Assembly (NCBI GenBank): GCA_044226625.1
Contig: JBGAGQ010000036.1
Coordinates: 1-60,784 of the forward strand
DNA length: 60,784 nt
Reading direction: 5' to 3'
Origin: Thermoanaerobaculia bacterium
GTDB lineage: Bacteria; Acidobacteriota; Thermoanaerobaculia; Multivoradales; UBA5704
A model generated the notes under the pieces. The model worked only from the letters and a program-made list of their open reading frames with translations, did no database searches and was not told the origin of the DNA. Positions 15,563-48,397 of this stretch are shown piece after piece. How positions within the stretch are numbered: the first letter of the stretch is position 1; every line of letters starts with the position of its first letter. The position numbers and the translations under genes are program-made.

Positions 15563-16357
15563 CTATTCCCAGAATTCGAGCGGCCGCGGCTCCAGGATCA
15601 GGCCGTGGGAGTGGGCTCGCCGGTAGAACTCCTCGAGGCCCGCGATCTCGTCCTCGCGCAGAAAGAAGCTCAAGCTCTCGGTGAGGTACGAGCGGACGTC
15701 CGCGGTGTCCAGATCGAGCTCCGCCGCGGCCTCGCGGACCAGGACGTCGAGCGAAGAAAGGCCGTACCGTAAGCTGCTCTTAAAATAGAATGCGAGCTCG
15801 GCGAGCTCGACCTCCGGACGGACCGCCCAGACCGCGAAAACGAAAGGCAGTCCGGTGAGCGCCCGCCATTCGGCGGCGAGGTCGTAAACGAAATACTTCT
15901 CCCGGTCGACCTTCAAGGCCGGATCGCCGATGACCAACGCGGCATCGGCCTCGGCCATCATCCGGTCGACCTCGGGCCGAAGCGGCAAGGTTTCGGGGCG
16001 CACGCCCCACCGCTCGGCGAGCAGGATGCGCACTAGCCCGGCCGAGGTCCGGCTATTCTGGTCGAGCGCCAGCCGCCGCACCTCTTCGATCGGGCCCTTG
16101 GTGACGAGCAGAACGCTCTTGACCTCGTGCGTCGCGGCGACGCAGAGGTCGGGAAGAACCTTGAGCCGAGGAATTCGCTGTACCTCGATCGACGGGATCA
16201 GACCGACGTCGAGGGAACCCTCGGCGAGTAGACGGGCCACCTGAGCCGGCGGATGGAAGCTCGGCGAGAAGAGGTCCGCGTGGTGCCCCTTCATGAAGCC
16301 CCAGGCGAGCGGTTTGCTGTTCAGGTAATTGACGATGCCGATGCGCAGCTTGGGCAC
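15563..16357 (-). CDS. mqnA: Chorismate dehydratase (futalosine menaquinone pathway)
   Basis: [31 protein letters not shown] motifs. Confidence 0.9.
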
Positions 16358-18292: not shown

Positions 18293-18444
18293 CGTAACGG
18301 GCCGCGACCGAAACGGGTGAACCGCCTCCGGGCCCTGGGGAAAACCAGCTTTCGTAGGGCACCCACCGGCCGTGTGCGCGGTCCGACGGGGTCATCGCGC
18401 GAACGGGAGCTGGCGACGAACCGCCTCGCTCCCGATCACGATCT

Positions 18445-20862
18445 TCAATGGGCCATTGAATCCGGCGCGATCGGAGTGTCGACTTTCCCTTCGGAAAACG
18501 CCTCTTGCCCCTTGCCCAACGGCAGAACCGGGCCGTCGAGCGCCAGGCGCAGGACCTCGTCCATCGACTCCACGAGGTGGAACTCCATCTGATCGCGCAC
18601 CTCTTGGGGGATTTCGTCGAGATCCTTCTCGTTTTCCTTGGGCAGGACGATCTCGGTCAAGCCGCCGCGGAAGGCGGCAAGAACCTTATCCTTGATCCCG
18701 CCGACCGGCAAGACTTTACCTCGCAGGGTGATCTCTCCGGTCATCGCCACGTCCTTGCGCACGGGCGTCTTGGTGAGCGCCGAGATCAGCGCCGTCGCCA
18801 TCGTGATACCGGCCGACGGCCCGTCCTTCGGAATCGCCCCTTCCGGCACGTGCAGGTGGACGTCGAGCTTCTCGTTGAAGTCCGGATCCACACCGAGCAG
18901 CTCGGCCCGCGCGCGCAGATAGGAGACCGCCGCTCGGGCCGACTCCTGCATCACGTCGCCTAGCTTGCCTGTGAGCGTCAGCTTGCCCTTGCCCGGCATC
19001 AGGCCGACCTCGGTTTCGAGCAACTCGCCGCCCACCTCGGTCCAGGCTAGCCCCGTGGCCACGCCGACCTCCGAGAGCTCGTTCTTGCGCCGTGCGCGGA
19101 ACTTGAGCTTGCCCAGGTACTCGACCACCGCCTCGGGCGTCACGCGGACCTCGACCTTCGATCCCTCTTGGACGACTCGGCGCGCGATCTTCCGGCAGAT
19201 CGAAGCGATCTCGCGCTCCAGGCTGCGCACGCCAGCCTCACGGGTGAAGCTTTCGATCACCACCCGGATCGCTTCCGGCTCGAAGGTCACCTTGTCTTTC
19301 GACAGACCGTGATTCGAAAGCTGCTTGGGCACCAGGAACTGCTCGGCGATGTTCAGCTTCTCGTTCAGGGTATAGCCCGAGAGCTGGATCACTTCCATGC
19401 GGTCCCGCAGCGGCGCCGGGATGGTGTGCGCGACGTTCGCGGTCGCGATGAACATCACCTTGGAGAGGTCGTAGTCGACGTCGAGGTAGTGGTCCATGAA
19501 CGCGTCGTTCTGCTCCGGATCGAGCACCTCGAGCAGCGCCGCCGATGGATCGCCCCGGAAATCCATCGACATCTTGTCGACCTCGTCGAGCAGGAACACC
19601 GGGTTGACCGTCCCCGCTTTCTTCATCATCTGGATGATCTGCCCGGGGAAGGCGCCGATGTAGGTCCGGCGATGACCGCGGATCTCCGCCTCGTCGCGGA
19701 CACCGCCGAGCGACAAGCGGACGAACTTGCGTCCGGTCGCCCGCGCGATCGACTTGGCGAGCGACGACTTGCCGACCCCGGGAGGTCCGACGAAGCAGAT
19801 GATCGAGCTCTTCGTCTGCCCCACCAGCTGGCGCACGGCGAGAAACTCGAGGATCCGGTCTTTGATCTTCTCCAGACCGTAATGGTCCTCGTTCAGCACC
19901 TTGTCGGCGAGAACGAGGTCCTTCATCTCCTTGCTCTTCTTCTTCCAGGGAACGCCGACCAACCAGTCGATGTAGTTGCGCGAAACGGTCGCCTCGGCCG
20001 AGACCGGCGGCATCGCTTCCAGCCGTTTCAGCTCCTGGTCGGCCTTCTCGCGTACCTCTTTCGGCAGACCGGCCTTCTCGATCTTGTCCTTGAGCTCCTG
20101 CAGCTCGTCGCCGCGCTCGTCCTTCCTCCCGAGCTCCTGGTGGATCGCCTTGATCTTCTCGTTGAGGTAGTACTCCTTCTGCGCCTTCTCCATCTGCTTC
20201 TTGACCTTGACGTTGATCCGCTTGTCGATGTTGATCTTTTCGATCTCCACGTCGAGCAGATCGTGCAGTCGCTGCAAGCGCTCATACGGATTGAGCAACT
20301 CGAGCAACGACTGCTTGTCGGCGGTCGACACCATCAGATGGGCGGCCAGGGTGTCGGCGAAATGGTCGGCATTGTCGACCTTCAAGGTCGACATCAGCCC
20401 TTCGAACGCCAAGTGGTGCGACATCTTGGCGTACTGCTCGAAGGCCTGGAGCACTTTGTTCATGTAGACCTGGAGCTCTTCCGAGATCGGGAAGTTGACC
20501 TCGTAGGTCTCGACGTCGACGTTCAGCGCACCGTCGCGGTCGATCACCTCGACCACCTTGCCGCGCTGCACGCCTTCCACCATCACCTTGACGTTGCCGT
20601 TCGGCAGCTTCAGGTTCTGGATCACCGTCGCGATGACCCCCAGCTCGAAGACGTCGTCCCGCAACGGCTCGTCGATCTTCGGGTCCTTCTGCGCGACCAG
20701 GAAGATCCGCTTCTGCGGCGTACCGAGGCTCTGTTCGAGAGCTCGCACGGAGCTTTCGCGTCCGACGATGAACGGCGCCATCATGTGAGGGAAGACCACC
20801 ATGTCCCGGAGTGGGACGAGCGGCAGGATTTCCCGTTTCTTGTCGATGAACGATGCGGCCAT
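18445..20862 (-). CDS. lon: ATP-dependent protease La
   Basis: LON N-domain, [16 protein letters not shown] catalytic Ser motif. Confidence 0.98.
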
Positions 20863-24208: not shown

Positions 24209-24279
24209 CGATCTTGGACTCCAGAGTTGCCCGGGAAAACGCCATCCATCGGAACCTACCGGCGAGAGTGCGGCGAGAG

Positions 24280-24365
24280 TGCGAAAGAGGGGACTCGAAC
24301 CCCTAACCCGATCTCTCGGGACTAGATCCTAAGTCTAGCGCGTATACCAATTCCGCCACTTTCGC
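24280..24365 (-). tRNA. tRNA-Leu(TAG)
   Basis: GCGAAAGTGGCGGAATTGGTATACGCG...CTAGA-CTTAGGA-TCTAG anticodon arm, long variable arm, GTTCGAGTC; CCA not encoded. Confidence 0.95.
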
Positions 24366-24451
24366 GAAGGGCTCACGGCAGCAAGTTACCCGGAAAAGAG
24401 GTCGGCAAATTCATCGACAGATGCTGTCGCAGAGGTTGTCGGATGATGGGA

Positions 24452-24527
24452 TGGTGAGCCGAGAAGGAATCGAACCTTCAACCCGCAGATTAAGAGTCTG
24501 CTGCTCTGCCAGTTGAGCTATCGGCCC
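24452..24527 (-). tRNA. tRNA-Lys(CTT)
   Basis: GGGCCGATAGCTCAACTGG...anticodon loop CTCTTAA...GTTCGATTC...ACCA, 76 nt. Confidence 0.96.
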
Positions 24528-25614: not shown

Positions 25615-25773
25615 CGTGGCCTTGGGGATCGCGGAGTCTGGCGTTGACGGATGAACAGACCGCGGATTGGGCGCCATTTTAAGAACAGGCACCGCCCGAA
25701 TCAAGGACGCCGCCTCGCGGGCCCGCGAGGCGCGACGTTGGCAGCCGACCGCGCGCGAGCGTAAGATGAAAGT

Positions 25774-25887
25774 GGCCCTCCGAGCTCGGCCGCCCCTCCC
25801 CGGAGACAACGGCGGGAGGCCGAGCCGCTCGAAACTCCAGGGTGGCCGGGGAAACCCGGTCGCCTCCCGCGCTCGGAAAGGTGGGCC
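25774..25887 (+). ncRNA. Moco (molybdenum cofactor) riboswitch
   Basis: CTCCGAGC...CCAGGG-TGGCCGGG-GAAA-CCCGGTCG-CCTCCC...GGAAAGG pattern matching the moaA leader motif; GGCCC/GGGCC closing stem; directly upstream of moaA; TTGGCA-18-TAAGAT promoter just before it. Confidence 0.85.
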
Positions 25888-25988
25888 GGCCCGCCGCAGG
25901 CTCCCGCGCCTCGGCCGTCCGGCTCTTCGTTTCGGCCGGGCGAACCGAACACGCGAAGGCGTCCATGGAGCAACTGGTACAGATCGGG

Positions 25989-32234: not shown

Positions 32235-34187
32235 TCAAAGCTCCCGGCTGCGCGCCGACACCTGGGTCTGGACCCGCGCTGCGAAGTCGGCGATCGAAGT
32301 CGCGCCCAGGTCGGCCCCGGCTCGGCGGCGCACCGACACGGTGCGCTCCTCCTGCTCTCGGGCTCCGACCACCAACATGTAGGGAACCTTCTGCAGTTGC
32401 GCCTCGCGGATCTTGTAGCCGAGTTTCTCGTTGCGCTCGTCCACCTCGACGCGCACGCCCGCCGCCGTGAGCTCCGCCCGCACCTCTTCGGCGTAGGCAG
32501 CGAACTTTTCGGAGATCGGCAGCACGACCCCTTGGACCGGCGCGAGCCAGACCGGAAATGCGCCCGAGGTCTGCTCGATCAGCACGGCGAGGAAACGCTC
32601 GAGGGAGCCGAGCATCGCGCGGTGGATCATCACCGGCCGATGCTCCTCTCCGTCGTCGCCCACGTAGGACAGATCGAAGCGCTCGGGAAGTTGGTAATCG
32701 AGCTGGATCGTGCCGAGCTGCCAACCGCGGCCCAGCGCGTCCTTCACGTGGAAGTCGATCTTGGGCCCGTAGAACGCGCCGTCCCCCGGGTTGATTCGAT
32801 ACGAGAGCCCCGCCTTGTCCAGCGCCGCGGCGAGCTTGCCCTCCGCGCGCTGCCACAGCTCGGCTGTGCCGATCGACTTCGCCGGACGCGTCGAAAGCTC
32901 GATCTCGACGTCGTCGAAACCGAACGTGGCGTAGACCTCGAAAATCATCCGGCCGAGCGACAGCACTTCGCTCTCGACCTGCTCCTCGGTGCAGAAGACG
33001 TGAGCGTCGTCCTGACAGAACGAACGCACACGCAGGAGCCCCGCCGTCACCCCGCTCCGCTCGTATCTGTGGAGCCGACCGAAGTCCGCGTAGCGGATCG
33101 GCAGATCGCGATACGAGCGCCGCTTCGTCCCGTAGATCAGGCAATGGGTCGGGCAGTTCATCGGCTTGAGCGCGAGCTCGCGCTCGTCGGCCTCGACGAA
33201 GAACATCGAGTCGCGATAGTTGTCGTAATGGCCCGAGATCTTCCACAGCTCGACGTCGAGCACCTGCGGCGTCAAGACCTCGCCGAACCCGTACCTCTTC
33301 TGAAGCTCGCGCACGAAGTCGACCAACTGGTTGTAGACGAACGCCCCCTTGGGATGGAAGAACGGCATCGCCGGCGCAAGCGGAGAGAAGCTGAACAGGT
33401 CGAGCTCCGGCCCGACCTTGCGGTGGTCGCGAGCCCGCGCCTCTTCCTGCATTGCAAGGTGGGCATCGAGCTCCGCCTGTGAGGCGAACGCGGTGCCGTA
33501 GATCCGCTGCAGCTTCTCGCCCTTCTCGTCGCCTTTCCAATAGACGCCGGAGGCTTCCAGCAGTTTCACCGCGCCGATCTGAGATAGGCGCTGGACGTGC
33601 GGGCCGCGGCAGAGGTCGGTAAAGCCGTCCGCTCCCCCATGGCGGTAGAGCGTGATCCGCTCCCCCTCCGGAATGTCCTTCAAGCGCTCGATCTTCAGGC
33701 GCTCTCCCATCGCGGAGAATTTCTGCTCCGCCTCTTCGCGCGAGATCTCGCTCCGCTCGAACGACAGGTCGCCGCCGGCCGCCACGATCGCGCGCATCTC
33801 CTGCTCGATCCGCTCGAGATCCTCGGGCGAGAAGGGGCGCGAGATCCGGAAGTCGTATTGGAACTTCTCGCTATGGTCCTTCCGGCCGACGTCGATCTCG
33901 ACCTCGGGGAAGAGGCGCTTGACCGCGTCGGCGAGCACGTGCTCCGCGCTGTGGCGGATGAACTCGCCCGCCTCCGGGCTCTTCGCGGTGAAGATGCGGA
34001 ACGCCCCGGAGGCGCGGATCGGCTCGCGAAGATCGATCTTTCGGCCGTCGAGCTCGGCGCCGATCGCGTCGCGGCCGAGGCGCGGACCGATCGAGTGCGC
34101 CACGTCGAGCGCCGTAGCGCCGGGCGCCACTTCGCGCACCGCCCCATCGGGCAGCGTTAGACGGAGAACTTCCGTGATTGTGCTCAT
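32235..34187 (-). CDS. thrS: Threonine-tRNA ligase
   Basis: TGS domain, DLCRGPH, KPMNCP, AFYGPKID, IHRAMLGSLERF. Confidence 0.97.
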   Translation of the reverse strand: MSTITEVLRLTLPDGAVREVAPGATALDVAHSIGPRLGRDAIGAELDGRKIDLREPIRASGAFRIFTAKSPEAGEFIRHSAEHVLADAVKRLFPEVEIDVGRKDHSEKFQYDFRISRPFSPEDLERIEQEMRAIVAAGGDLSFERSEISREEAEQKFSAMGERLKIERLKDIPEGERITLYRHGGADGFTDLCRGPHVQRLSQIGAVKLLEASGVYWKGDEKGEKLQRIYGTAFASQAELDAHLAMQEEARARDHRKVGPELDLFSFSPLAPAMPFFHPKGAFVYNQLVDFVRELQKRYGFGEVLTPQVLDVELWKISGHYDNYRDSMFFVEADERELALKPMNCPTHCLIYGTKRRSYRDLPIRYADFGRLHRYERSGVTAGLLRVRSFCQDDAHVFCTEEQVESEVLSLGRMIFEVYATFGFDDVEIELSTRPAKSIGTAELWQRAEGKLAAALDKAGLSYRINPGDGAFYGPKIDFHVKDALGRGWQLGTIQLDYQLPERFDLSYVGDDGEEHRPVMIHRAMLGSLERFLAVLIEQTSGAFPVWLAPVQGVVLPISEKFAAYAEEVRAELTAAGVRVEVDERNEKLGYKIREAQLQKVPYMLVVGAREQEERTVSVRRRAGADLGATSIADFAARVQTQVSARSREL

Positions 34188-34263: not shown

Positions 34264-34340
34264 TGGTAGGCGCTGACGGACTCGAACCGTCGACCTCTAC
34301 CGTGTGAAGGTAGCGCTCTAACCAACTGAGCTAAGCGCCC
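34264..34340 (-). tRNA. tRNA-Val(CAC)
   Basis: GGGCGCTTAGCTCAGTTGG...CTACC-TTCACAC-GGTAG...GTTCGAGTC...ACCA. Confidence 0.96.
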
Positions 34341-34553
34341 GGTCATGAACTTCCCGAGGGTCGAGATTTCGGCATCATTTGCATCAGAGGGTGCATTCTG
34401 AATGCATTCGAGGGCTTCGAGCTTCTCCGTCGAGGCGCGGCAGCGGCCTCGCTTTCGGCGCTCGGACTTCCCCCTCGTTCCCTCCAGTCGATACCGATCT
34501 CCTTCCGATCCTCGCTCCTACGAAGGCTGCCTACGGATTCGCTGGAGGCTATC

Positions 34554-34630
34554 TGGTAGGCCCGAGCGGACTTGAACCGCTGACCTCTACGATGTCAACG
34601 TAGCGCTCTAACCAACTGAGCTACGGGCCT
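34554..34630 (-). tRNA. tRNA-Val(GAC)
   Basis: AGGCCCGTAGCTCAGTTGG...CTACG-TTGACAT-CGTAG...GTTCAAGTC...ACCA. Confidence 0.96.
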
Positions 34631-34763: not shown

Positions 34764-35411
34764 ATGAAGCCACCGGAACCCGATCTCTTCTCGGCGGAGC
34801 CCCGAACGCCGCCTCCGAGCTTGCGGGCTCTCGCTGCCGCGGAGCAGGCTTGCCGGGCGTGCGGCCTCTACCGTAACGCGACGCAAGCGGTTCCGGGAAC
34901 CGGGCCGGCGCGGGCCTCGCTCCTCCTGATCGGCGAGCAGCCGGGAGATCTGGAAGACCTCGCGGGGCAGCCGTTTGTCGGGCCCGCGGGCAAGGTGCTG
35001 GACGAGGCGCTGAGCGCGGCCGGGATCGATCGCCGCGAGGTCTACGTTACGAACGCCGTCAAGCATTTCAAGTGGGCGCCACGCGGCAAGCGCCGGATCC
35101 ACCAAAAGCCCAATCTCACCGAGGTTCGCGCTTGCCTGCCGTGGCTCGAATCGGAGCTGGCCCTGGTTCGACCCGAGGTAGTGGTCTGCATGGGCGCGAC
35201 CGCGGCTCAGGCGTTGATGGGCTCGACGTTCCGCGTGACCCGCGACCGCGGCCGATTCTTCGAGACCTCCTGGGCCCGTTGGCTCACCGCCACGATCCAT
35301 CCCTCCGCCGTGCTTCGCATGCCGGACGAGCCGAAGCGCAAAGAGGCTTTCGATCAGCTGGTCGCGGACCTCGCCCAAGCCGCGGAGAAGGCGGCCCACC
35401 CCCACCGCTAG
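34764..35411 (+). CDS. udgX: UdgX-family uracil-DNA binding protein (family 4 UDG)
   Basis: CRACGL Fe-S motif, GEQPG, NAVKHFK, diagnostic KRRIH loop, HPSAVLR. Confidence 0.88.
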   Translation: MKPPEPDLFSAEPRTPPPSLRALAAAEQACRACGLYRNATQAVPGTGPARASLLLIGEQPGDLEDLAGQPFVGPAGKVLDEALSAAGIDRREVYVTNAVKHFKWAPRGKRRIHQKPNLTEVRACLPWLESELALVRPEVVVCMGATAAQALMGSTFRVTRDRGRFFETSWARWLTATIHPSAVLRMPDEPKRKEAFDQLVADLAQAAEKAAHPHR

Positions 35412-38748: not shown

Positions 38749-38873
38749 TCGGGCGATTCACCGCTCCAACGGGCCGCCCGAGGTTTGGGCGGCCCACCTG
38801 CCGACGCGCTCGCGCCATCCCCGCGCACCTCAATTTTCGTAACCGTCCGGAGCCGCGCTCCGAGGAGGATCCC

Positions 38874-39041
38874 ATGAAGAAGCGGACCCAGAAGCTCCAG
38901 CTATCCCGGGAAACCGTCACCATCCTGCAATCGACCGATCCCCTGAACCGCGCCAACGGCGCCACCGAGCCCACCGGGCCGCGCGATCAGAGCTTCTGCG
39001 TCGAGTGCTACTGGCCTTCGATCAACTACCCCTGCGACTGA
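38874..39041 (+). CDS. Putative RiPP precursor peptide 1 (55 aa)
   Basis: Below the ORF-track cutoff. RBS GAGGAGG; MKKRTQKLQLSRETVTILQSTDPLNRANGA-TEPTGPRDQSFCVECYWPSINYPCD; leader homologous to the peptide at 47892-48071. Confidence 0.85.
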   Translation: MKKRTQKLQLSRETVTILQSTDPLNRANGATEPTGPRDQSFCVECYWPSINYPCD

Positions 39042-39091
39042 GGCTCGACGGCACGATTAGGGCGCCGACTGATTGCGGTCGGCGCCTTCCG

Positions 39092-39505
39092 CTACCGAGG
39101 CCAGGCCGCCCAGTCCCGCCGAAAAGACGGCCAAGCGTCGACGAGGTACAGGCCGAACGGCACCCACCAGATGAAGTCGTTCGTGGCGCAGAGAACGATC
39201 GATCGCAGAGGCCACTCGCCGCGAGCGATGAGCACCGCGAGGCCGATCGGTCCGAGGATCTTCCCCGTCAGGCCCACCGCCGCGAGCGGCCATCCTCTCT
39301 CGGGCATCCGCGCAACCTCGAGATAGATCACGCCGTATAGCCCGATCACCATCGCGAGGCAGGCGAAAATGCCGGGGTGGTTGAGCGGCGGCATCCCGCT
39401 CCACCGAAACAGCCACTGCGGATCGAGCGCGGAGAAGATTCCCCACGTAATGTTGTAGACGCCCGCGGCGAGGAAGATCGCGCGGTGGAAACGGCGACGG
39501 GGCAT
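39092..39505 (-). CDS. Small multi-pass membrane protein
   Basis: About four hydrophobic segments (AAGVYNITWG, MVIGLYG, GKILGPIG, NDFIWW). Confidence 0.8.
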   Translation of the reverse strand: MPRRRFHRAIFLAAGVYNITWGIFSALDPQWLFRWSGMPPLNHPGIFACLAMVIGLYGVIYLEVARMPERGWPLAAVGLTGKILGPIGLAVLIARGEWPLRSIVLCATNDFIWWVPFGLYLVDAWPSFRRDWAAWPR

Positions 39506-39591
39506 GACGAGGGAATTGTAGCTTCACAGCTCTATGTCCGAAGCCGTTTCCACTCGATCCAGCGCTCGAATCTGGCCCGTGCCCAGGAGGC

Positions 39592-40185
39592 TCAACTCCC
39601 GAATCGGACCACGACTCCAGAAATGCTCGCGAAGTCCTCCGAAATATTGATGATGGCGTCGCCACCCAGCTGGATAGCCTGGCTCTTCAATTCTTCGTCT
39701 ATGGCGTCACGCTTCTTCGTCCTACCGAACGTACTGTACTTGCTCACGCTGACTCGACCCCGCTCGACGAAAGGCTGCGATGGTCTTTCCGTGAAGAAGA
39801 GCTTCACTTCCGGTGCGGATTGAGCATGGACAACAAGTGAGTCTTTCGGGGGGGTTGTGGACGCTTGCTTCTGTTCTGGCTTGGGTACAGATGAGGGCGC
39901 CTGTGCTTGCACCAGGAGTCGCTCACTGACGGCTGTCAAAATCGGCTGATGGAGTCCGGCATCTCGAAGTGCGTTGAGGGCAGGGAGGCTACCGTCCAAT
40001 CGCTGAAGGGGCGAGCCTTGGATCGCAGCCAAAATCACGCTTTCGCCGATTCCGGCTCGCTTCATCGCGACGATGTCTGCGTTTTCTAGAGGCTTGTCGC
40101 CGTCGCCTACGGGCGACTGGGCCGCCAGAGATGTGCTCAAAAGGACAACTTGGACAGTGGCGATTTGTGCCAGTCTTAGCAACAT
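39592..40185 (-). CDS. Exported hypothetical protein, C-terminal YbjQ/heavy-metal-binding-like domain
   Basis: Signal peptide, LENADIVAMKRAG helical domain, C-terminal LKSQAIQLGGDAII; start uncertain. Confidence 0.7.
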   Translation of the reverse strand: MLLRLAQIATVQVVLLSTSLAAQSPVGDGDKPLENADIVAMKRAGIGESVILAAIQGSPLQRLDGSLPALNALRDAGLHQPILTAVSERLLVQAQAPSSVPKPEQKQASTTPPKDSLVVHAQSAPEVKLFFTERPSQPFVERGRVSVSKYSTFGRTKKRDAIDEELKSQAIQLGGDAIINISEDFASISGVVVRFGS

Positions 40186-40291
40186 CGGTTCGTCCTCCCA
40201 GCCGTCGGCGCAACGAGTGATGGATGGCTCTAGATCGGTTCAAAAAACGATACTGATCACCCCAAGTTCGACAGCCCAAGGATCGCCGAGC

Positions 40292-41290
40292 TCAAGGACG
40301 AAACGCGGACTTGTCGACGACTCCGGGCAGCGTATCGCTATCCGTGGCAAGCTGAGGAAGCAGGTAGTACTGGATCACCCCCGTGCTGATCTGCTGAATC
40401 CATACTTCGGTCTTCGTTGTATTGAACCTCACGATGTTCGACCACAGGTAGCCATTAGACTTCGGTCCGACGATACGAACCAACACCTCGGCGCGCGTTG
40501 GGATCGATCCGGCAACACAAACCGTTTCCGGTAAGCAGTCGGCCACCGAGGTGCCGATTCGCGTGTCGCTAATCCGCACCCAGAAACGGAAGTTCGGGTA
40601 CTGCGCCGAGGTGATTCCCTGAACCGAAGGCGGAACAGGATCGGGGGGTGGTGGCGGAGGGGGAGGAGGTGGCGGCGGAGGTGGCGGCGGAGGTGGCGGA
40701 GGGGGAGGAGGCTCGTTGCTTTCGGTGAATCTGTACCTAATGCCTACCCCATGCATCTGAATCGACCCTTGAGGACCGTTGGCAAACGGGGGCCTTGCGC
40801 CTCCGATCTGAACGTCGAAGACCGTGCCCGAATCGGTAGCTGGCAGGCCAAGAAACACATTGTCAGAATCAAAAATGTCGTATGAGACCTCGACCTCATA
40901 CGCCCCGGGCTTGACGGTCGCATTGAATCCGGTGAGCGTGTGGCACGTGAAGGATTGCGAGGGGAACGTGCGGGCGAAGGTGATCGACTGGATCGTCGAG
41001 TGCTCTTGAGTGACAGACGCCGTTGCGGTGAACGTGCGGGTAAACGCCGACTCGTTGTAGAGACAGGCCGTAACCTGAGAAACGATGCCGCCATTCGTCG
41101 TGGAGGCGTGCCCGATCATGCTCAGATCGGTCGAACCAGCCTGGTAATACCAATTCAACGCGCCGCTATAGAAGGTGAAATCGGCAGGAGCGGCATCGCC
41201 GAGCAATACCTGACGCGCGATGGGTTGCTGAGCCGCGACCGCACCGACCGACAAGGATCCAAAGAGAATCAAACTGAAAGGTCTGAGCAT
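40292..41290 (-). CDS. Secreted protein with poly-proline linker and compact C-terminal domain
   Basis: Signal peptide (AVAA-QQ), beta-rich N-domain, 23 consecutive Pro codons (40643-40711), ~110 aa C-domain with a Cys pair. Confidence 0.85.
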   Translation of the reverse strand: MLRPFSLILFGSLSVGAVAAQQPIARQVLLGDAAPADFTFYSGALNWYYQAGSTDLSMIGHASTTNGGIVSQVTACLYNESAFTRTFTATASVTQEHSTIQSITFARTFPSQSFTCHTLTGFNATVKPGAYEVEVSYDIFDSDNVFLGLPATDSGTVFDVQIGGARPPFANGPQGSIQMHGVGIRYRFTESNEPPPPPPPPPPPPPPPPPPPPPPPDPVPPSVQGITSAQYPNFRFWVRISDTRIGTSVADCLPETVCVAGSIPTRAEVLVRIVGPKSNGYLWSNIVRFNTTKTEVWIQQISTGVIQYYLLPQLATDSDTLPGVVDKSAFRP

Positions 41291-41652
41291 TTCGGCTCCC
41301 GATGATGCAAATACGCACTGCCAGGTTCCACGCTAGGGTTCGGCCCTAGGGCGATACCGATAGAACGCAGGGTTGATAAGCGTCCTCTATCCATTTACGC
41401 GACGGAACCCCTGCGGTCGGCTCATTCGAGCCTCAAGTGGGCAACACATATTTGAGACATGGAGACGGCTAAGGCTAAGGAAGCGCTCTTCGTCGAGCGC
41501 ATCGGGCAACGACGGACGTCCTCCCCATCGGAAGGGTGGGCGCCGCGCCAGCGCCCTACGGCAATCTCGGGCTCCTGGCGCTACTGGCGGTTGGTTCGCG
41601 CTGCGGCTTGGGAAGGGTTCGTTGGAGCCGGCCCCAGCCGCCAGACCTCGCC

Positions 41653-44600
41653 TTACTCCACCCGCAATACCTCCCCCGCCGAATACGCCACGAACTCGGG
41701 CGCGTACAGGCTCTGCAGCGTCGCCGGGCCGACTCGGAAGGTGCCGGCGACGTTCGCTCGGACGCGGTACTTCAGGGTGTATTCGCCAGCCGGGAGCCAT
41801 TCGAAGAAGAAGTTGGTGCCGGAGTCGCGGGTCTCTTCGTAGCGGATGAGCCCCAGATCCCAACGGTAGCCCGAGACGACGATTCCGGGCTCGAAACCCG
41901 CACCTCTCGGATCGCGGAGATGGACGTATTCGGCCGCGGCTCGGCTGCGAATCGAGAGCTGGACCTCGACCTCGTCGCCGACCGCGAGGACCGCGTTCTC
42001 GGCGAGCGGCTCGAGCGTCGTTTCTGCGCCGGTGCGGACGCGTTTCAAATATCGCCTCTCGACGTGGAACAGGTCGCCGCTCGCTTGTTTCGGCAGCTGA
42101 TCGGTCGCGAAGTGCCAAGTCGCCGAGGCGAACATGAGCCCCGGCGTCTCCTGCCGGATCTCGACCTTCGCGCCGACGGTCTTCGCCGCGGCGTCGACCT
42201 CCGGGCCGGGGACTACCAGCTGGTTGTGCTTGCCGGTGTAGCGGTCGGGCTCGAAGACGAACTCTGTCGATTTCCCAGCGACCGCGACACGAGCCGCCTC
42301 GCGCACGCCGAGCAGGTTCTCCTTCTTGAGATAGGCCGCGAGCGAGTAGAGAACCTCGGCGGTCGCCCTTGTGCTCTGCCAGTGGCCGAGCTTCTTCTGG
42401 AGGAAGATCCACTGGACGAGACCGGCGAGACGCGGATCGTCCGGGCGGAGCTCCAGCAGCGTCCGCAGGGCGAAGGCGTGAGTTTCAATTGTGTCGTTGT
42501 ACCAGAGCCAGGCACGATCCTCGGGCTGCCAGAAGGTCCCCTCGTCGCGAGTGGTCTTCGCCGTATCCATCACACTGTCCCAGACGAGATTCGCGTCGGC
42601 CTTCCGTCCCATCCGGTGCAGGGTGAGCGCGAGCAGACCCTTTAGATAGCCCGAGTGCTCGCGCCACTTCGAGAAGCTCCAGTCGGCGATCTTCGCGCGG
42701 TCGGCCGGGTCGAGCGCGCCGCCCATCCATGACGGATCGGGATAGGCCGAGGCGACGTAGTTGAGCAGCGTGAGCAGCTCGACGCAGCAGCCGTTCTTCT
42801 TCCCCACCTCTCGCGACCATTCCTCCCGGTAGCGGGCGCCGAGATAGCTCCATCCCCGCTCGACCATCTCGCGCGGGACCTCGACACCGAACTCACCCGC
42901 CTTGGCGAAGCCGTAGAGGAGGTAGATCGTCATGTAGTCCGACGGCGGGCCACCCGGCCACCAGGGGAAGGCCCCGCTGCCGAGCTGGGCCTTGCGCAGC
43001 TTCGAGAGGGAATCGTCGCGCTGCGCCTCGGCGATCTTCGGATCGAGCACCTTGAGCAGGGCGGGATCGCCCTCTCCCGGGATCTTGCCGCCACGCGCTG
43101 TTTCGAGCCACGGCGACTCTTCGAGGGCCATGCGCCGGTTCGGGTCGTCGGCGTTCCAGGCTTCGTACGGCGTCTCACGCTTCGCGAGCGAGGCGGACAT
43201 CTCCCCGACCGCCGGGTAGCGGTCGAACAGGCTGCGCAGGATGCCCGTCGAAAGGAACCGGTTGAGCGTCTGCTCGGTGCACTCGTACGGGTAGTCGATC
43301 AAGTAGGGAAGCGCGTCGAGCACGCCGTAGAAGAGCTGGCCGTCGAGCGTCACTACCAATTGCTCGGTGACGCGCGTCGGATCCTCCGGAGCTCCGGGCG
43401 CGAGATCGGCGAAAGCGAGGGTTCGAGCCCCGCTGCCGCGCAGCGCCGCGAAACGCGATTGCGCGAGATGGAGCCGAGAAGGCAGGACAGGCAGCGCGCG
43501 GCGCTCACCGTCCGAGGCCGCTCCGGCGCGAGCCGTCACCTCGAAGGCGACCTCACCCACCCGCTTGGGAACGACGATCGGGAAGGTGACCGTGGCGGAG
43601 CCTCCCGGCTGGATCGAGAAACGCGCGATCGCCTTCTCCGGGGTGAGTCCGAAGTCGGCGAGCCGGCTCTCCTCCGACTCCGGATCGCGGAGGTCGAAGC
43701 GGACCTCGCCCGAGAGCGAACTCTCCCCCGCGTCCTGAACCACCGCGCGGATCTCCGCGCGGTCCCCTTCGCGCAGAAAGCGCGGTAGGTAGGGGCGGAC
43801 CATCAGCTCCTTGGCGCTCCGCGTCTCGCGCTCGGCAGATCCCGAGCGGAAGTCGCGGGTGAGCGCGCGAACCCAAACCTTCCAGGCGGTGAGCGAGTCG
43901 GGGACCGTGAACTCGATCGCCGCCGAGCCGTCCGCGCCGGTGATCAGGTGCGGCTGCCAGAACGCGGTTTCGACGAAGTTCGTCCGCGGCACGACGGGCT
44001 CGGCTGCCGGCCCGGGCGCGGCTTCGCCCGGAGCGGGCGGAGCGGGGGGCGGGGGTGGCACGGACTGCGGCTTGGGTACCTCGAGAGCCGCATCCTCCGG
44101 TGCCTCCGCCGCGCGGCCGCCGGCACTCGGCGCCGCCATCGCGAAGCTCATGGACCTGCGAGTCATCAGGAAGGTCTCGAGCGATCGCAGTACGTCCCGT
44201 TGGAAGATCGGCCCGTCGGGCAGGACCACGAAATCCTCGTCCGACACCTGCCAGCCCGTGGTCGAACCGAGGCTGATTCGGGCGTCGTAACTCCCCCGCG
44301 CGCGGTCGGGGAAGAGGTCGAGCGGCGCCGGGGGCCGGTGCTCAACGAACGCGTCGAGGCTCCGGTCGTACATCGAGGCGAGCAGCTCCGCCGCGGCCAC
44401 CGGAGCGCCGGGCGAATCCCCTTCTTTCTTCCCGGGCTCCCGAACGGTCACCCGCCAGGTCTCGCGATCACCGGGGCGGATCCGATCGCGGAAGGTCGAG
44501 AGCTCCACCTCGACCTTCCGGTCGTCCCACGGCACCCGGATCGTCGCCTGGCGTTCGAGCGCCTGGTGGTCGCGCAAGGTGAACAGCCGGAACAGCACGC

Positions 44601-47600
44601 CGCCTCGATCGGCGGGCCCCACGGGCCAGGCGATCTTCGTCGGGGCGGGGCCGGCAATCAGCCGTCGGCGCTCGCGCAGCTGGCCGGATTGCCAGGTCTC
44701 GAGCACCAGCTCCTGGCCCGGAAAGCCGGAATGGACCACCAGGTTCGCCGTATCGCCGACCCGCAGATCGGCGCGCTCGACCGAGAGGAACGCCGCCAGG
44801 GCGAGCTGGCCCGTCTCCTTGCCCTGCCCCGGGTCGCCCGCGACGACGATCTCGCGTCGCGCCTCGGCTTTCTGGCCGAGGTCGTCCATCGTCTCGTAGC
44901 GCAATCGATAAGCGCCCGCGCCGAGCGCCGGCAGGGAGACCTCGGCGCGGCCGTCGGCACCGTGGACCGCTTCGCCCCGCGCCACCTCGCGGCCGTCTTC
45001 CCAGCCCGCGAGCGCGCGCTCGGAGCCGCCGTCCGCTTCCCAACGCGGCCGGAGCGCATCGCCTGGAGTAGTAAAAGCTCCTGGGGCCGCCGTGGGCGTT
45101 CCGGGCGCCTCCCGAATCGGCTCTTCGCTCGGTAGGAGCGGGTGCGTCGGCTGGATCAGCTCGACGAGGCGCCACGATCCCCGGCCCGGTCTCGGCGCGC
45201 CGTCGAGGTCGGAGCGGTCGATTCCGAGCCGAGCCGCGCGCCCGGCGGTGAGGAATCCGGGCTCGCCGTCGATCCTCGCCTCGACCGAGGTGAAGCCCAC
45301 GCGGTAGGCACGGTCGGCCTCGCGTGTCTCTCCCCCCTCGTCGGTCACCTCGACGCTCACGCGGAAGCGGTAGCTGAGATCGCGGGAATCGCCCTCTTCC
45401 GCCTCGGGCGTGAAGGTGAGGGAGAACGCGCCCGTGTCGTCGAGCGCCGACTCGCCCCAGGCGACCCGCTCGGCCTCGCTACCCCCGCCTCCCGGCGGAC
45501 GGAACCACCAGCCCCACCACCACGGATAGACCGGCTCGCGCGTCACCTGCCAGCGGGCGGAAGCTCCGACCACCGGCAGGCCGAACAGATACCGGGCGTT
45601 GCCGCCGAAGTTCGCCGGCCGATTCAAGCGCAACGCATCTCGCGGCGCGTCGAGGGTCACCTCGAACGTCGGCCGCTTGTACTCCTCGACGCGGATCGAG
45701 GCGTTTCCCCGCGGCTCGCCACCCACCGTGGAGGCCGCGAGGGTCCAAGCGCCGAGCGGCCGGCCGGCGGGGATGACGAATTCCGCCGCCGCGGTGCCGT
45801 ATTCGTTGGTTTTGACCGTCGTCGCGGCGGCCTCCTGACCGTTCGGGTCGGTCAGCGCGATCTTGAGCTCGGTGTCAGGCGCCAGATGGAGATCCCCCTT
45901 CTCGACGAACCCGCGCCAGGCGAGGACTTTCCACAGGACCTTCTGCCCCGGCCGATAGATCGCCCGGTCGGTGTAGAGGAGGGTCGAGGCGATCCCGACG
46001 GTCGGCTCCGGCGCGGAGACCCAGCCCAGGTCGAGATAGGCGAGCGAGGCGCCGCGCCGCGCGGCTACGGTGAAGCGTCGCGAAAGGGACGAATCGTTGC
46101 CGCTCTCCGGACCGGCGGCCTCGGAGTACCGGACCGTTCCATCGGCACCCGAGGTCGCGACCGCCACCCGCGTGCCGCCGTCGTCGTAGCTCATCCGATA
46201 CAGGCGGACCTCGACCCCCGGCACCGCGCGGCCGGTCTCGCCGTCCAGCGCGAGGACCACGAGCTCGCCGTGATCCGTACCGCGGCTCGCGAGGACCAGG
46301 CCGCCGATCAGCATGCGGAGCGAAACGCGCCTGTTGTGGGCCCGGCGAAAATCCTCGCGGGCCGAGACCAGCACGGCGTACAGACCTGGCTGCGCCAACG
46401 GCGGCTCGACGTAGGTCGAGTGGACGCGGTAGTCCGGCGTCGTCGGCAGCTCGACGCGCCAGCTCGCCGCGGGCTTCCGGCCGGCCAGCGTCTCGAACGG
46501 ATCGGAGTAGTCGGAGAGCGGGAGCTTGCCGCCACGCTCGAAAAAGCCCGCGAGATCGAGCGGATAGGCGCGGAAATAGAGCGCCGGCAGGTTCGCATGG
46601 CGAACCCGGATCGAGCGACGGCCGGGCGCGTCGCTCGCCATCGCCTCGACTGCGAGGCTGGGCGCCTCGATCTCCCGCGCGATCCGGCGGCACGCGGCGC
46701 CGCCGGGCGAGCCGGGATAGGCCTCGACGCCCTCGAGTGCGATCTTGCGTGCCTCGACCAGGGCATCCGGCCGATCGAAGGCGTCCTGCTCCCGCGTCCA
46801 ATCGGCGAGCTGCGCCATCCCCATCGCCCACCACGAGATCTGGCGATACCGAGGGAGCCGCGCCGCGAGGTCCTCCCGGACCCGCGCCCGATCGGCTTTC
46901 GAGCTCCAGGCGGCGTTGAGGCGACGAAGCCTCTCGAGCCGCGCCTCGAGCTCCGCCGCCGGTCGAGCGGAGGCACGATGCCAGGCCTCGAGATCGGCGA
47001 GCACGAAGGCGAGCTTCGCGAGCGGATGGGTGGCCGGGTCGGCGATCGCGCCCGAGGACGGAGAGTCAGCGAGCAGCTCCGTCCGGTCGAGCCGCCAGAC
47101 ACCGTTCGACTGCGCGGGCGACCAGAGCGAGCCGTCCGCGAGCAGCTCGACGAAGAGATAGGAAACCGCGTCGCGCAACGTGCCGCGCACCTCCGCCGGG
47201 TAGTCGTTCGGCGTGAGGAAATCCGACCACTCGGAGACCTTGCGCGTGCCGAGCGCCTCGCGCAGATCCCAAGCTCGCGCGTACGCCGCCACTGCCTCGG
47301 CGGCGATCTGATCGCGGGTCCAAGCCTTCAGATCGACCGTCTCGGTGCCGACCGTCTTCTCGCGGTTTTGAATCTCCCAACGGTAGGCGCGGAGGTAGTT
47401 GACCAGAGCCGCGCCGTAATAGAGGTCGAGGATCGCCCGCTCCTCCCGCGCCTGCGGCCAGGTCTGCTCGCGCAAGAATCGGACCGCCGTCTCGAACCCC
47501 GCGAGGTTCGTCCGCAGCTCGACGGCTTTGACCAGAGCCCGCGTCAGCATGCGCTCGTCCTTTGCCGCGCGGGCCTTCTCGATCAGCGCGACGGCGCGGT

Positions 47601-47784
47601 CGTACGCGGTCTGCATCTTCTGCTCCTCATGGGCCAAACGGTCGATCTCAGCGAGTTCCACGCTCAAGGACGGGCGCTTCGCCGGCCGTTTCTTCGCCGC
47701 GAGGGAGGCGTTCGGCGCGCAGAAGGCGAAGACCAGACCAAGGACGAGACCGATGCGGACGACGGAGACCGGGCGCGATTTCAT
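41653..47784 (-). CDS. Bacterial alpha-2-macroglobulin family protein
   Basis: 2043 aa, signal peptide, YTDRAIYRPGQ, VEEYKRPTF, RTNFVETAFWQP, thioester motif YPYECTEQ, C-terminal MG10 domain. Confidence 0.93.
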   Translation of the reverse strand: MKSRPVSVVRIGLVLGLVFAFCAPNASLAAKKRPAKRPSLSVELAEIDRLAHEEQKMQTAYDRAVALIEKARAAKDERMLTRALVKAVELRTNLAGFETAVRFLREQTWPQAREERAILDLYYGAALVNYLRAYRWEIQNREKTVGTETVDLKAWTRDQIAAEAVAAYARAWDLREALGTRKVSEWSDFLTPNDYPAEVRGTLRDAVSYLFVELLADGSLWSPAQSNGVWRLDRTELLADSPSSGAIADPATHPLAKLAFVLADLEAWHRASARPAAELEARLERLRRLNAAWSSKADRARVREDLAARLPRYRQISWWAMGMAQLADWTREQDAFDRPDALVEARKIALEGVEAYPGSPGGAACRRIAREIEAPSLAVEAMASDAPGRRSIRVRHANLPALYFRAYPLDLAGFFERGGKLPLSDYSDPFETLAGRKPAASWRVELPTTPDYRVHSTYVEPPLAQPGLYAVLVSAREDFRRAHNRRVSLRMLIGGLVLASRGTDHGELVVLALDGETGRAVPGVEVRLYRMSYDDGGTRVAVATSGADGTVRYSEAAGPESGNDSSLSRRFTVAARRGASLAYLDLGWVSAPEPTVGIASTLLYTDRAIYRPGQKVLWKVLAWRGFVEKGDLHLAPDTELKIALTDPNGQEAAATTVKTNEYGTAAAEFVIPAGRPLGAWTLAASTVGGEPRGNASIRVEEYKRPTFEVTLDAPRDALRLNRPANFGGNARYLFGLPVVGASARWQVTREPVYPWWWGWWFRPPGGGGSEAERVAWGESALDDTGAFSLTFTPEAEEGDSRDLSYRFRVSVEVTDEGGETREADRAYRVGFTSVEARIDGEPGFLTAGRAARLGIDRSDLDGAPRPGRGSWRLVELIQPTHPLLPSEEPIREAPGTPTAAPGAFTTPGDALRPRWEADGGSERALAGWEDGREVARGEAVHGADGRAEVSLPALGAGAYRLRYETMDDLGQKAEARREIVVAGDPGQGKETGQLALAAFLSVERADLRVGDTANLVVHSGFPGQELVLETWQSGQLRERRRLIAGPAPTKIAWPVGPADRGGVLFRLFTLRDHQALERQATIRVPWDDRKVEVELSTFRDRIRPGDRETWRVTVREPGKKEGDSPGAPVAAAELLASMYDRSLDAFVEHRPPAPLDLFPDRARGSYDARISLGSTTGWQVSDEDFVVLPDGPIFQRDVLRSLETFLMTRRSMSFAMAAPSAGGRAAEAPEDAALEVPKPQSVPPPPPAPPAPGEAAPGPAAEPVVPRTNFVETAFWQPHLITGADGSAAIEFTVPDSLTAWKVWVRALTRDFRSGSAERETRSAKELMVRPYLPRFLREGDRAEIRAVVQDAGESSLSGEVRFDLRDPESEESRLADFGLTPEKAIARFSIQPGGSATVTFPIVVPKRVGEVAFEVTARAGAASDGERRALPVLPSRLHLAQSRFAALRGSGARTLAFADLAPGAPEDPTRVTEQLVVTLDGQLFYGVLDALPYLIDYPYECTEQTLNRFLSTGILRSLFDRYPAVGEMSASLAKRETPYEAWNADDPNRRMALEESPWLETARGGKIPGEGDPALLKVLDPKIAEAQRDDSLSKLRKAQLGSGAFPWWPGGPPSDYMTIYLLYGFAKAGEFGVEVPREMVERGWSYLGARYREEWSREVGKKNGCCVELLTLLNYVASAYPDPSWMGGALDPADRAKIADWSFSKWREHSGYLKGLLALTLHRMGRKADANLVWDSVMDTAKTTRDEGTFWQPEDRAWLWYNDTIETHAFALRTLLELRPDDPRLAGLVQWIFLQKKLGHWQSTRATAEVLYSLAAYLKKENLLGVREAARVAVAGKSTEFVFEPDRYTGKHNQLVVPGPEVDAAAKTVGAKVEIRQETPGLMFASATWHFATDQLPKQASGDLFHVERRYLKRVRTGAETTLEPLAENAVLAVGDEVEVQLSIRSRAAAEYVHLRDPRGAGFEPGIVVSGYRWDLGLIRYEETRDSGTNFFFEWLPAGEYTLKYRVRANVAGTFRVGPATLQSLYAPEFVAYSAGEVLRVE

Positions 47785-47891
47785 GATCGAAGCTTAGATC
47801 ATGCGGCGAGCCGGAGGTTCCTGGTCGAGGGTGCCGCCCCAAGGGAGGCTCGGCCGCGGCGGACCCTCGGATCAACGGTTCGTCTTAGGAG

Positions 47892-48071
47892 CTACGGACA
47901 GCACTGAGAGAGCCGGGTCGGATCGCAGGAGGTGATGTTGGTGCACTCGACGTCCAGAGTGTTGCAGGTGGCGGCCCTCGTCGCCCCTGCGGCCACTCCG
48001 GTCAGATCGCGATCCGCGAGTCTGCGGACCGTTTCGCGGGACAGCGTGAGCTTGCGGTGGCGCTTTACCAT
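47892..48071 (-). CDS. Putative RiPP precursor peptide 2 (59 aa)
   Basis: RBS AAGGAG; MVKRHRKLTLSRETVRRLADRDLTGVAAGA-TRAATCNTLDVECTNITSCDPTRLSQCCP. Confidence 0.88.
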   Translation of the reverse strand: MVKRHRKLTLSRETVRRLADRDLTGVAAGATRAATCNTLDVECTNITSCDPTRLSQCCP

Positions 48072-48143
48072 GGCTTTTCTCCTTTTCGGAATTGCCGCGC
48101 CGGGCCTCCGAAATTCATGGTGCGCACGCGTCGGAGTGACGCG

Positions 48144-48359
48144 CCTCCCACGCAAGAGGGGGAGGCTAGAAGGGGGTTGATTCAAGGAGGGTTGCTCTCA
48201 AGCCTCCATCGTCTGCTCAAAGCGGTAGACCCCCACCTCGGTCCTCCCCCGCAAGCGGGGGAGGAAGAACTGCAAGCTTTGCGGTAGACACATCGAGCGC
48301 CTGGCCGGGCAAGCGCTCAATCCCTCCCCCCGCCTGCGGGGGGAGGCTAGGAGGGGGGT
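48144..48359. repeat. Cluster of three REP-like GC palindromes
   Basis: CCTCCCACGCAAGAGGGGGAGG, CCTCCCCCGCAAGCGGGGGAGG and CCTCCCCCCGCCTGCGGGGGGAGG with a shared tail CTAG(A/G)AGGGGGTTG; the middle copy is inverted. Confidence 0.8.
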
Positions 48360-48397
48360 TGTTGAAGCATCAGGGAGGCTGGAGCCGTACCCCCGCC

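Follow-up and report, generated by a model that had tools for sequence, protein, structure and literature searches.

Two small genes of a Thermoanaerobaculia contig as probable members of a dispersed library of class I lanthipeptide precursors

Contig JBGAGQ010000036.1 (60,784 nucleotides (nt); hereafter the window, which is the whole of contig C25) belongs to a metagenome-assembled genome (MAG) of Thermoanaerobaculia (Acidobacteriota), with an assembly of 6.6 Mb in 133 contigs, 67.7% G+C, an estimated completeness of 97.9% and an estimated contamination of 5.53%. An earlier reading of this stretch, made from the sequence alone, had pointed to two small open reading frames (ORFs) on opposite strands, here termed precursors A and B, as encoding peptides with one leader, different Cys/Thr/Ser-rich cores and no maturase nearby. 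This raises the question of whether A and B are genuine genes for RiPPs (peptides synthesized ribosomally and modified post-translationally) and, if they are, which enzymes act on their products. The analyses described below suggest that A and B are probably two of about 55 dispersed precursors of class I lanthipeptides, which would be processed in trans by LanB and LanC enzymes whose genes lie in other parts of the genome. Contigs are designated by C numbers and genomes by G numbers; where no genome is given, the contig is one of the window's own genome (G000).

Precursors A and B and the family to which they belong

The two genes and their parts were located in the window as follows.

38874..39041, plus strand: precursor A, 55 amino acids (aa) plus stop, from the ORF list (leader hidden Markov model (HMM), E 3.2e-14)
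38874-38963, plus strand: leader of A, approximately residues 1-30, ending in GA
38964-39038, plus strand: core of A, 25 aa, with 3 Cys and 4 Ser/Thr
38862..38869, plus strand: Shine-Dalgarno-like GAGGAGGA upstream of A, in the 20 nt preceding the start
47892..48071, minus strand: precursor B, 59 aa plus stop (leader HMM, E 7.0e-15)
48071-47982, minus strand: leader of B, approximately residues 1-30, ending in GA
47981-47895, minus strand: core of B, 29 aa, with 5 Cys and 8 Ser/Thr
48079..48084, minus strand: Shine-Dalgarno-like AAGGAG upstream of B, in the 20 nt preceding the start

Precursor B is the part of a listed 97-aa ORF with a TTG start (47892..48185, minus strand) that begins at an internal ATG (48071). 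In both A and B, a GGAG-type ribosome-binding site was found a few bases 5' of the ATG. When the first 31 residues of the two peptides were aligned, 17 were identical without any gap; GA occupied positions 29-30 in both, and VEC was present in both cores. These findings confirmed the initial observation, and both ORFs were judged to be real genes. The likeness of the two leaders is far beyond chance, given the E values listed above among 102,688 ORFs. Scans for consensus promoters and terminators around A and B yielded 0 sites. A 2,043-aa ORF (41653-47784, minus strand) begins 107 nt downstream of B on the same strand, and in G007, too, B is adjacent to the ORF's start; the two may be co-transcribed.

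A strict leader pattern was matched by 17 six-frame ORFs of the genome. When the leader HMM built from these 17 was run against the 102,688 six-frame ORFs, 54 ORFs of like build were recovered. A second round, in which noise started at E 0.2, added one ORF at C60:6918-7010 and one borderline ORF on C9, bringing the family to 55 solid members and 1 borderline member. The leader alignment (A1) that served as the query for the genomes of relatives was also run against the window's own genome as a control, and 55 matches were obtained. A genome-wide library, as had been postulated from the two leaders, is therefore present in the form of the 54 ORFs plus the copy on C60.

The peptides of this family were 48-83 aa long, and a GGAG-type ribosome-binding site was found upstream of nearly all of the 54 ORFs. 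Their consensus was KLxLx(R/K)ETLxxL...GG/GA, followed by a Cys/Thr/Ser-rich core. Leader and core were separated by a simple G[GA] cut-site rule; one of the 54 peptides had no such site and was excluded (n=53). The site was GG in 32/53 and GA in 21/53 peptides, with a mean leader of 28 aa and a mean core of 34 aa. Cores contained 17.2% Cys, 14.6% Thr and 8.6% Ser, compared with 0.76%, 4.9% and 6.0%, respectively, in the called proteome (4,118 genes from a crude caller based on G+C content at third codon positions, which was also used for the neighbouring genes and is not a validated annotation). All leaders together contained 2 Cys; each core contained 2-10 Cys, and Ser plus Thr equalled or exceeded Cys in 53/53. 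Among paralogues, leaders were 50% identical (23% when shuffled) and cores 34% identical (30% when shuffled), and paralogous cores are therefore alike in little beyond composition.

Neither the surroundings nor the upstream regions of the precursors revealed a common element. Clustering of the 309 genes within 5 kb of the 54 precursors found no recurrent family (best enrichment, hypergeometric p 0.003, from 4 genes at 2 loci), and a k-mer scan of the 150 nt upstream of the 54 precursors, compared with 4,028 other upstream regions, found no motif that survived multiple testing (best hexamer, p 1.7e-4 among 2,743 hexamers). When 10 of the peptides were looked up in a protein collection, all 10 were present with exactly the same boundaries, either unnamed or as 'hypothetical protein'. 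The suggestion that gene callers largely miss such peptides was thus not upheld; it is annotation, not calling, that misses them.

Conservation between species of the genus was examined next to the divergence among paralogues. Orthologues of A in G001 and G003 were identical to it at 23/25 core positions and at 19-20/30 leader positions, and orthologues of B in G001 and G007 agreed with its core at 26/30 and 19/30 aligned positions, with every Cys kept. Of 44 pairs of peptides, 26 likely orthologous ones (covering 14 distinct peptides of this genome) were retained after exclusion of pairs with <60% identity, <50 aligned residues or a length difference >12. In these 26 pairs, cores were identical at 596/831 positions (71.7%) and leaders at 543/747 (72.7%), and Cys was kept at 144/148 positions. 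Judged by these identities, the cores are shown to be under purifying selection, being varied among paralogues and maintained between species. This maintenance is strong evidence that the cores are translated and functional. The description of the peptides as hypervariable holds among paralogues, but not between species, where cores are as conserved as leaders.

Precursor A was absent from the site in G002 (C100:80050-80141) that is syntenic with window positions 38750-39110, the interval there being ~90 nt, and in other same-genus genomes A was found 1.8-3 kb away or rearranged. The loss of A at the G002 site indicates that single copies of the library come and go.

Just upstream of B (48130-48360) there is a GC-rich hairpin repeat (stem CCTCCCCC...GGGGGAGG), with copies at about 48230-48268 and 48321-48359, which looks like a repetitive extragenic palindromic (REP)-type element. 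Some 118 copies measuring 28 nt or more were found on 43 contigs, often paired or in small arrays (e.g., C86:172.7-173.4 kb), and the repeat also occurs in same-genus genomes. It was located within 3 kb of 7/54 precursors, compared with 2.6 expected, a value reached by 1% of 500 random draws. The repeat was considered as a vehicle for dispersal of the precursors and rejected, its proximity being taken to reflect a common intergenic location.

Class of the leader and candidate enzymes

The sole NCBIfam match of the leaders was NF038153 (lant_leader_L1a, 'class I lanthipeptide'), which matched 24/54 leaders at E <= 0.001 (best E 9.7e-07). A and B themselves scored 14.6 and 14.7 bits, respectively (E about 0.03), where the cut-off is 22 bits; Pfam gave no match for either. 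In the available part of the survey of Walker 2020 (PMC7268733), an LxLxKx5L motif is reported in class I LanAs of Bacteroidetes, Gly-Gly is noted as the end of many of these leaders, and the clusters often encode a C39 protease. The family consensus agrees with this LxLxKx5L motif. Moreover, A and B both carry the motif as LxLxRx5L with a leader ending in GA, their cores contain Cys together with dehydratable Ser/Thr, and a full-length LanB and LanC proteins with zinc ligands are encoded in the same genome. The proposal that these are RiPP-type precursors with a class I leader of the form LxLx(K/R)x5L...GG/GA was borne out by the motif and, at the level of the family, by NF038153.

When contig C25 was searched for LanB, LanC, LanM (DUF4135), YcaO, SPASM and Peptidase_C39, no match was found, in agreement with the sequence-only reading; all matches were on other contigs. 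The candidate enzymes for the library were the following.

C93:86992-90363: LanB, 1,123 aa, with Lant_dehydr_N (572 bits) and Lant_dehydr_C (229 bits); the only one in the genome
C4:58628-59944: LanC1 (147 bits)
C114:7232-8530: LanC2 (141 bits)
C93:132017-134380: C39-peptidase ATP-binding cassette (ABC) exporter, with C39 (about residues 60-210), ABC membrane and ABC ATPase domains; the only one in the genome

The sequence-only reading had made its case depend on there being further leader copies or a maturase in the genome; in addition to the copies described above, one LanB, two LanCs and one C39 exporter were thus found outside the window. DUF4135 (LanM) had no match in the genome, but as it had none in the control genomes either, this is weak evidence. 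LanC1 and LanC2 are stand-alone proteins of about 435 aa that are 41% identical, and both carry GVAHG, WCYG and CHG. Since these motifs fit the C...CH zinc triad of LanC as described in the accessible text of PMC10352776, the zinc ligands appear to be intact. The exporter contains the motifs SDCGSAC and NHFVV and resembles ComA (8hf4, 354 bits) and PCAT1 (4ry2, 350 bits) over its full length. Three precursors (C4:57634-58500) are located directly upstream of LanC1. Beside LanB, LanC2 and the exporter there is neither a precursor nor a partner enzyme, and all four enzyme genes are mutually unlinked. Because the enzyme genes are unlinked to each other and to almost all precursors, a single enzyme set would serve the whole library in trans, and the trans processing that had been proposed is well supported by these genomic data.

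Class I LanB enzymes are established to act by glutamylation of Ser/Thr followed by elimination of glutamate, and class I dehydratases use glutamyl-tRNA (PMC9993889). In the route that we propose, the leader would dock on the single LanB encoded on C93, and Ser/Thr of the core would be glutamylated and the glutamate eliminated, giving dehydro-residues. Thioether rings would then arise through the joining of Cys thiols to these residues by a stand-alone LanC; the cyclase adjoining LanB in relatives has LanC2 as its orthologue here. Finally, the single C39-peptidase ABC transporter would cut after GG/GA and export the product. We infer the modification, the choice of LanC, the cleavage site and the biological role from genomic context, and our guess is that the products would be secreted as polycyclic peptides with a role in competition or signalling.

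Docking of the leader was also examined in a folding test, in which LanB residues 1-780 (alignment A2) were folded with a 34-residue leader (alignment A1) alongside 3 controls. The LanB-leader score was 0.50, compared with 0.00 for the best of the 3 controls; agreement between the runs covered 50% or more of the contacts, and the predicted local distance difference test (pLDDT) value of the partner was 49 or higher. The mark used in this test is reached by 58/80 solved complexes and 2/110 mismatched pairs, and the scores of 0.60 or below that reach it come from only 7/80 solved complexes plus both passing mismatches. The complex of NisB with the nisin leader has already been solved, and the pass may merely reflect memory or likeness; the test lends weak support to binding of the leader by LanB.

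Distribution of the leader in relatives and alternative readings

Leader matches were found in 24/41 related genomes. Within the genus of the window, 8/8 genomes contained leaders, with 16-55 matches each among the best 150 scored candidates, and one LanB match each. A LanB orthologue was detected in 24/24 leader genomes, in 21 of them as a single piece scoring 495 bits or more and, in G011, G018 and G022, in pieces. Among the 17 leaderless genomes, one contained a LanB orthologue (G029, 477 bits) and G009 contained a 254-bit relative. Inside three genera, genomes having both leader and LanB could be contrasted with genomes having neither (G012/G022, G013/G023 and G014/G024). In an even sample of the class (151 genomes), leader matches were found in 16, and at least 30 matches were found only in G000, G001, G011 and G025, which fall into two families within the order of the window.

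The top-scoring leaders in relatives sit in canonical lanT-lanA-lanC-lanB clusters, for which the positions were as follows.

G027:C11: C39 at 31133, leader at 33455, LanC at 33947, LanB at 35307
G024:C142: LanB at 16122, LanC at 18311, leader at 19760, C39 at 21807
G030:C127: leader at 12273, LanC at 12875, LanB at 14269, C39 at 20359
G027:C7: LanB, LanC, at least five leaders and C39

Among 80 LanB loci from public genomes of several phyla, 34 had a leader match in their flanks; among these loci are ones from Archangium, Cystobacter, Kofleriaceae, Holophagaceae, Acidobacteriaceae, a Paenibacillus and Actinomycetota MAGs. The LanB loci with the highest identity (82-85%) came from MAGs titled Thermoanaerobaculia, Acidobacteriota or Holophagales. 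A LanC was present at 54/80 loci and was always nearer to LanC2 than to LanC1, and none of the seven LanB loci with at least 75% identity had a LanC. Given that the LanB-linked LanCs are always nearest to LanC2, it is LanC2 that was LanB's ancestral partner, and in the genus of the window the cluster has come apart.

These distributions bear on the alternative that survives best, namely that the orphan precursors give rise to unmodified or disulfide-only peptides with double-glycine leaders (like class II bacteriocins or pheromones), which the C39 transporter cuts and exports, while LanB and LanC act only on the precursors beside LanC1. Such peptides would be compatible with the finding that 51/54 precursors have no adjoining maturase (the exceptions being the three at LanC1) and that no neighbour family recurs. 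Also, 2-10 Cys per core are enough for disulfide knots, and GG/GA leaders are a general C39 export tag, peptides with double-Gly leaders being described as common in the portion of Walker 2020 (PMC7268733) that was available. However, a C39 domain was still present in 12/17 leaderless genomes and a LanB orthologue in 1/17, which argues that leaders follow LanB and not the exporter. Moreover, orphan and cluster-embedded leaders scored alike on the same HMM, and Thr and Ser were enriched together with Cys. We therefore regard export without lanthionine formation as unlikely.

A much less probable alternative is that the cores are modified by another enzyme class, such as a radical S-adenosylmethionine (SAM)/SPASM thioether maturase of the sactipeptide or ranthipeptide type, with the leader being common to several pathways. 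Two loci speak for it: the radical SAM/SPASM gene at C17:4223-5590 ends 170 nt upstream of the precursor at C17:5762, and G000:C31:29200-33086 encodes an StsB-like radical SAM/SPASM maturase (184 bits) with an ABC transporter after it. However, the C17 enzyme gave its best matches to the heme b synthase AhbD and to NirJ2 (290 and 278 bits, respectively), carries a PCP_red domain and adjoins just 1/54 precursors, and as a maturase it was set aside; the ORFs beside its gene are presumably cytochrome oxidase genes. Four SPASM matches were found in the genome (C17, C71, C72 and C31), and only that on C17 adjoins a precursor. The C71 gene encodes a twitch radical SAM protein that appears unrelated to the leader family. 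The C31 cluster has its own small Cys-containing ORF upstream, with a different leader (E 8.3 on the leader HMM), and represents a sactipeptide-like locus of its own. At G000:C5:23592-26850, a YcaO gene (275 bits), flanked by a 467-aa gene on its downstream side and, upstream, by two small ORFs (79 and 88 aa) with a common N-terminal pattern, is possibly another separate RiPP locus with a different leader. The RiPP-type enzymes on C5, C31, C71 and C17 look unrelated to the leader family.

That A and B are chance, unexpressed open frames, a concern in DNA of 68% G+C where 10 kb contain 88 ORFs of at least 30 aa, many of them spurious, is effectively refuted by the 55 paralogues with ribosome-binding sites, by the core residues kept across species (Cys 144/148) and by gene callers that predict the same ORFs in 10/10 cases.

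Several points weigh against the assignment of A and B to a class I library processed in trans. No maturase for A and B was found in the 60 kb of the window, neither gene adjoins lanB or lanC, and individually both fall below the 22-bit cut-off of NF038153. In G001, the orthologue of B carries AA in place of GA, which makes the cleavage site uncertain. Some cores contain up to 10 Cys and are equally able to form disulfides, and the radical SAM/SPASM gene on C17 lies close to a precursor. The 41 genomes used for co-occurrence are kin and not independent, their comparison is not a formal statistical test, and the match counts per genome are not exact copy numbers. Finally, in a 133-contig MAG with 5.53% contamination, linkage across contigs depends on binning; a binning artefact is unlikely, as the pattern recurs in 7/7 other genomes of the genus.

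Other features of the window were also recorded. A molybdenum/tungsten cofactor (Moco) riboswitch is present at 25766-25899 on the plus strand (Rfam RF01055, 49.7 bits, gathering score 36). Four tRNA genes form two pairs on the minus strand (24279-24527 and 34264-34630), in which Leu-tag is paired with Lys-ctt and Val-cac with Val-gac. In addition, a 332-aa ORF (40292-41290, minus strand) holds an unbroken run of ~27 prolines.

Comparison with known systems and significance

How far does a class I library of this kind depart from what has been described? Bacteroidetes-type class I lanthipeptides (e.g., the pinensins and the PedA peptides of Pedobacter lusitanus) have the same leader motif and GG/GA end, and they likewise involve a full-length LanB, a separate LanC and a C39 protease/transporter, according to the accessible text of PMC7268733. 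For one of them, PedA15.2, presented as a new class I lanthipeptide, the part of a review that was available (PMC12328550) names the GG-specific protease LahT150 as the cleaving enzyme. In contrast to these systems, the K of the motif is mostly R in the present family, the host belongs to the Acidobacteriota, the enzymes are unlinked, and ~55 precursors are scattered.

The prochlorosins (class II) of marine picocyanobacteria, made by ProcM, resemble the present family in having one enzyme, many precursors, a common leader with a GG-type end, and unlike cores; 29 precursor peptides are reported, many encoded far from the enzyme (PMC7268733 and PMC12328550, in the sections available). The same layout was found here, where one LanB match stands against 55 dispersed leader matches with unlike cores. 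However, ProcM is a single bifunctional LanM and its substrates carry Nif11-type leaders, whereas the present genome encodes separate LanB and LanC proteins, and its leaders match only NF038153; no LanM was found, in a DUF4135 search that was silent in control genomes as well. Prochlorosin cores vary even between close strains, whereas the cores studied here are conserved between species. With double-glycine bacteriocins and pheromones, exported by ComA and PCAT1, the family has in common the GG/GA signal and an exporter that is alike over its full length, but those substrates need no LanB or LanC, whereas the leaders studied here co-occur with LanB.

In our reading, these findings represent a RiPP class that is already known, arranged in a layout that is unusual and lineage-wide and consists of a broken-up cluster and a large precursor library. 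The system had been put forward as undescribed; its leader type and enzymes are those of a described class, and the layout alone looks new. In the literature covered, which takes in few subscription journals, there was no description of dispersed class I precursor libraries or of class I systems in Thermoanaerobaculia. A paper in which both 'Thermoanaerobaculia' and 'lanthipeptide' appear (PMC13083261) concerns, in its accessible portion, class II and class III clusters. The survey of Walker 2020 (PMC7268733), as far as its available text goes, was confined to seven genes around a LanC-domain protein and would for that reason miss scattered copies; related Acidobacteria peptides might figure in its supplementary precursor tables, which lie outside the coverage of our literature search.

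A broader proposal, on which we are evenly divided, is that this system is the class I equivalent of ProcM, with one LanB, unlinked LanCs and one C39 exporter maturing >50 unrelated cores. It would have originated by the break-up of a lanT-A-C-B cluster together with precursor expansion within one order of the Thermoanaerobaculia, in no fewer than two of its families. Because each peptide is conserved between species, the library would represent dozens of distinct, maintained functions and not a fast-changing repertoire. Cluster-based mining, which picks up precursors only near the enzymes, would count three lanthipeptides in this genome, those adjoining one LanC, although about 55 may be made. 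The conserved cores point to defined products that merit synthesis. If the proposal is true, a LanB/LanC set that accepts so many unlike cores would amount to naturally promiscuous class I machinery of use in peptide engineering. It would also provide a second, independent example of one enzyme and many peptides, in which the purpose of such libraries could be examined outside the picocyanobacteria.

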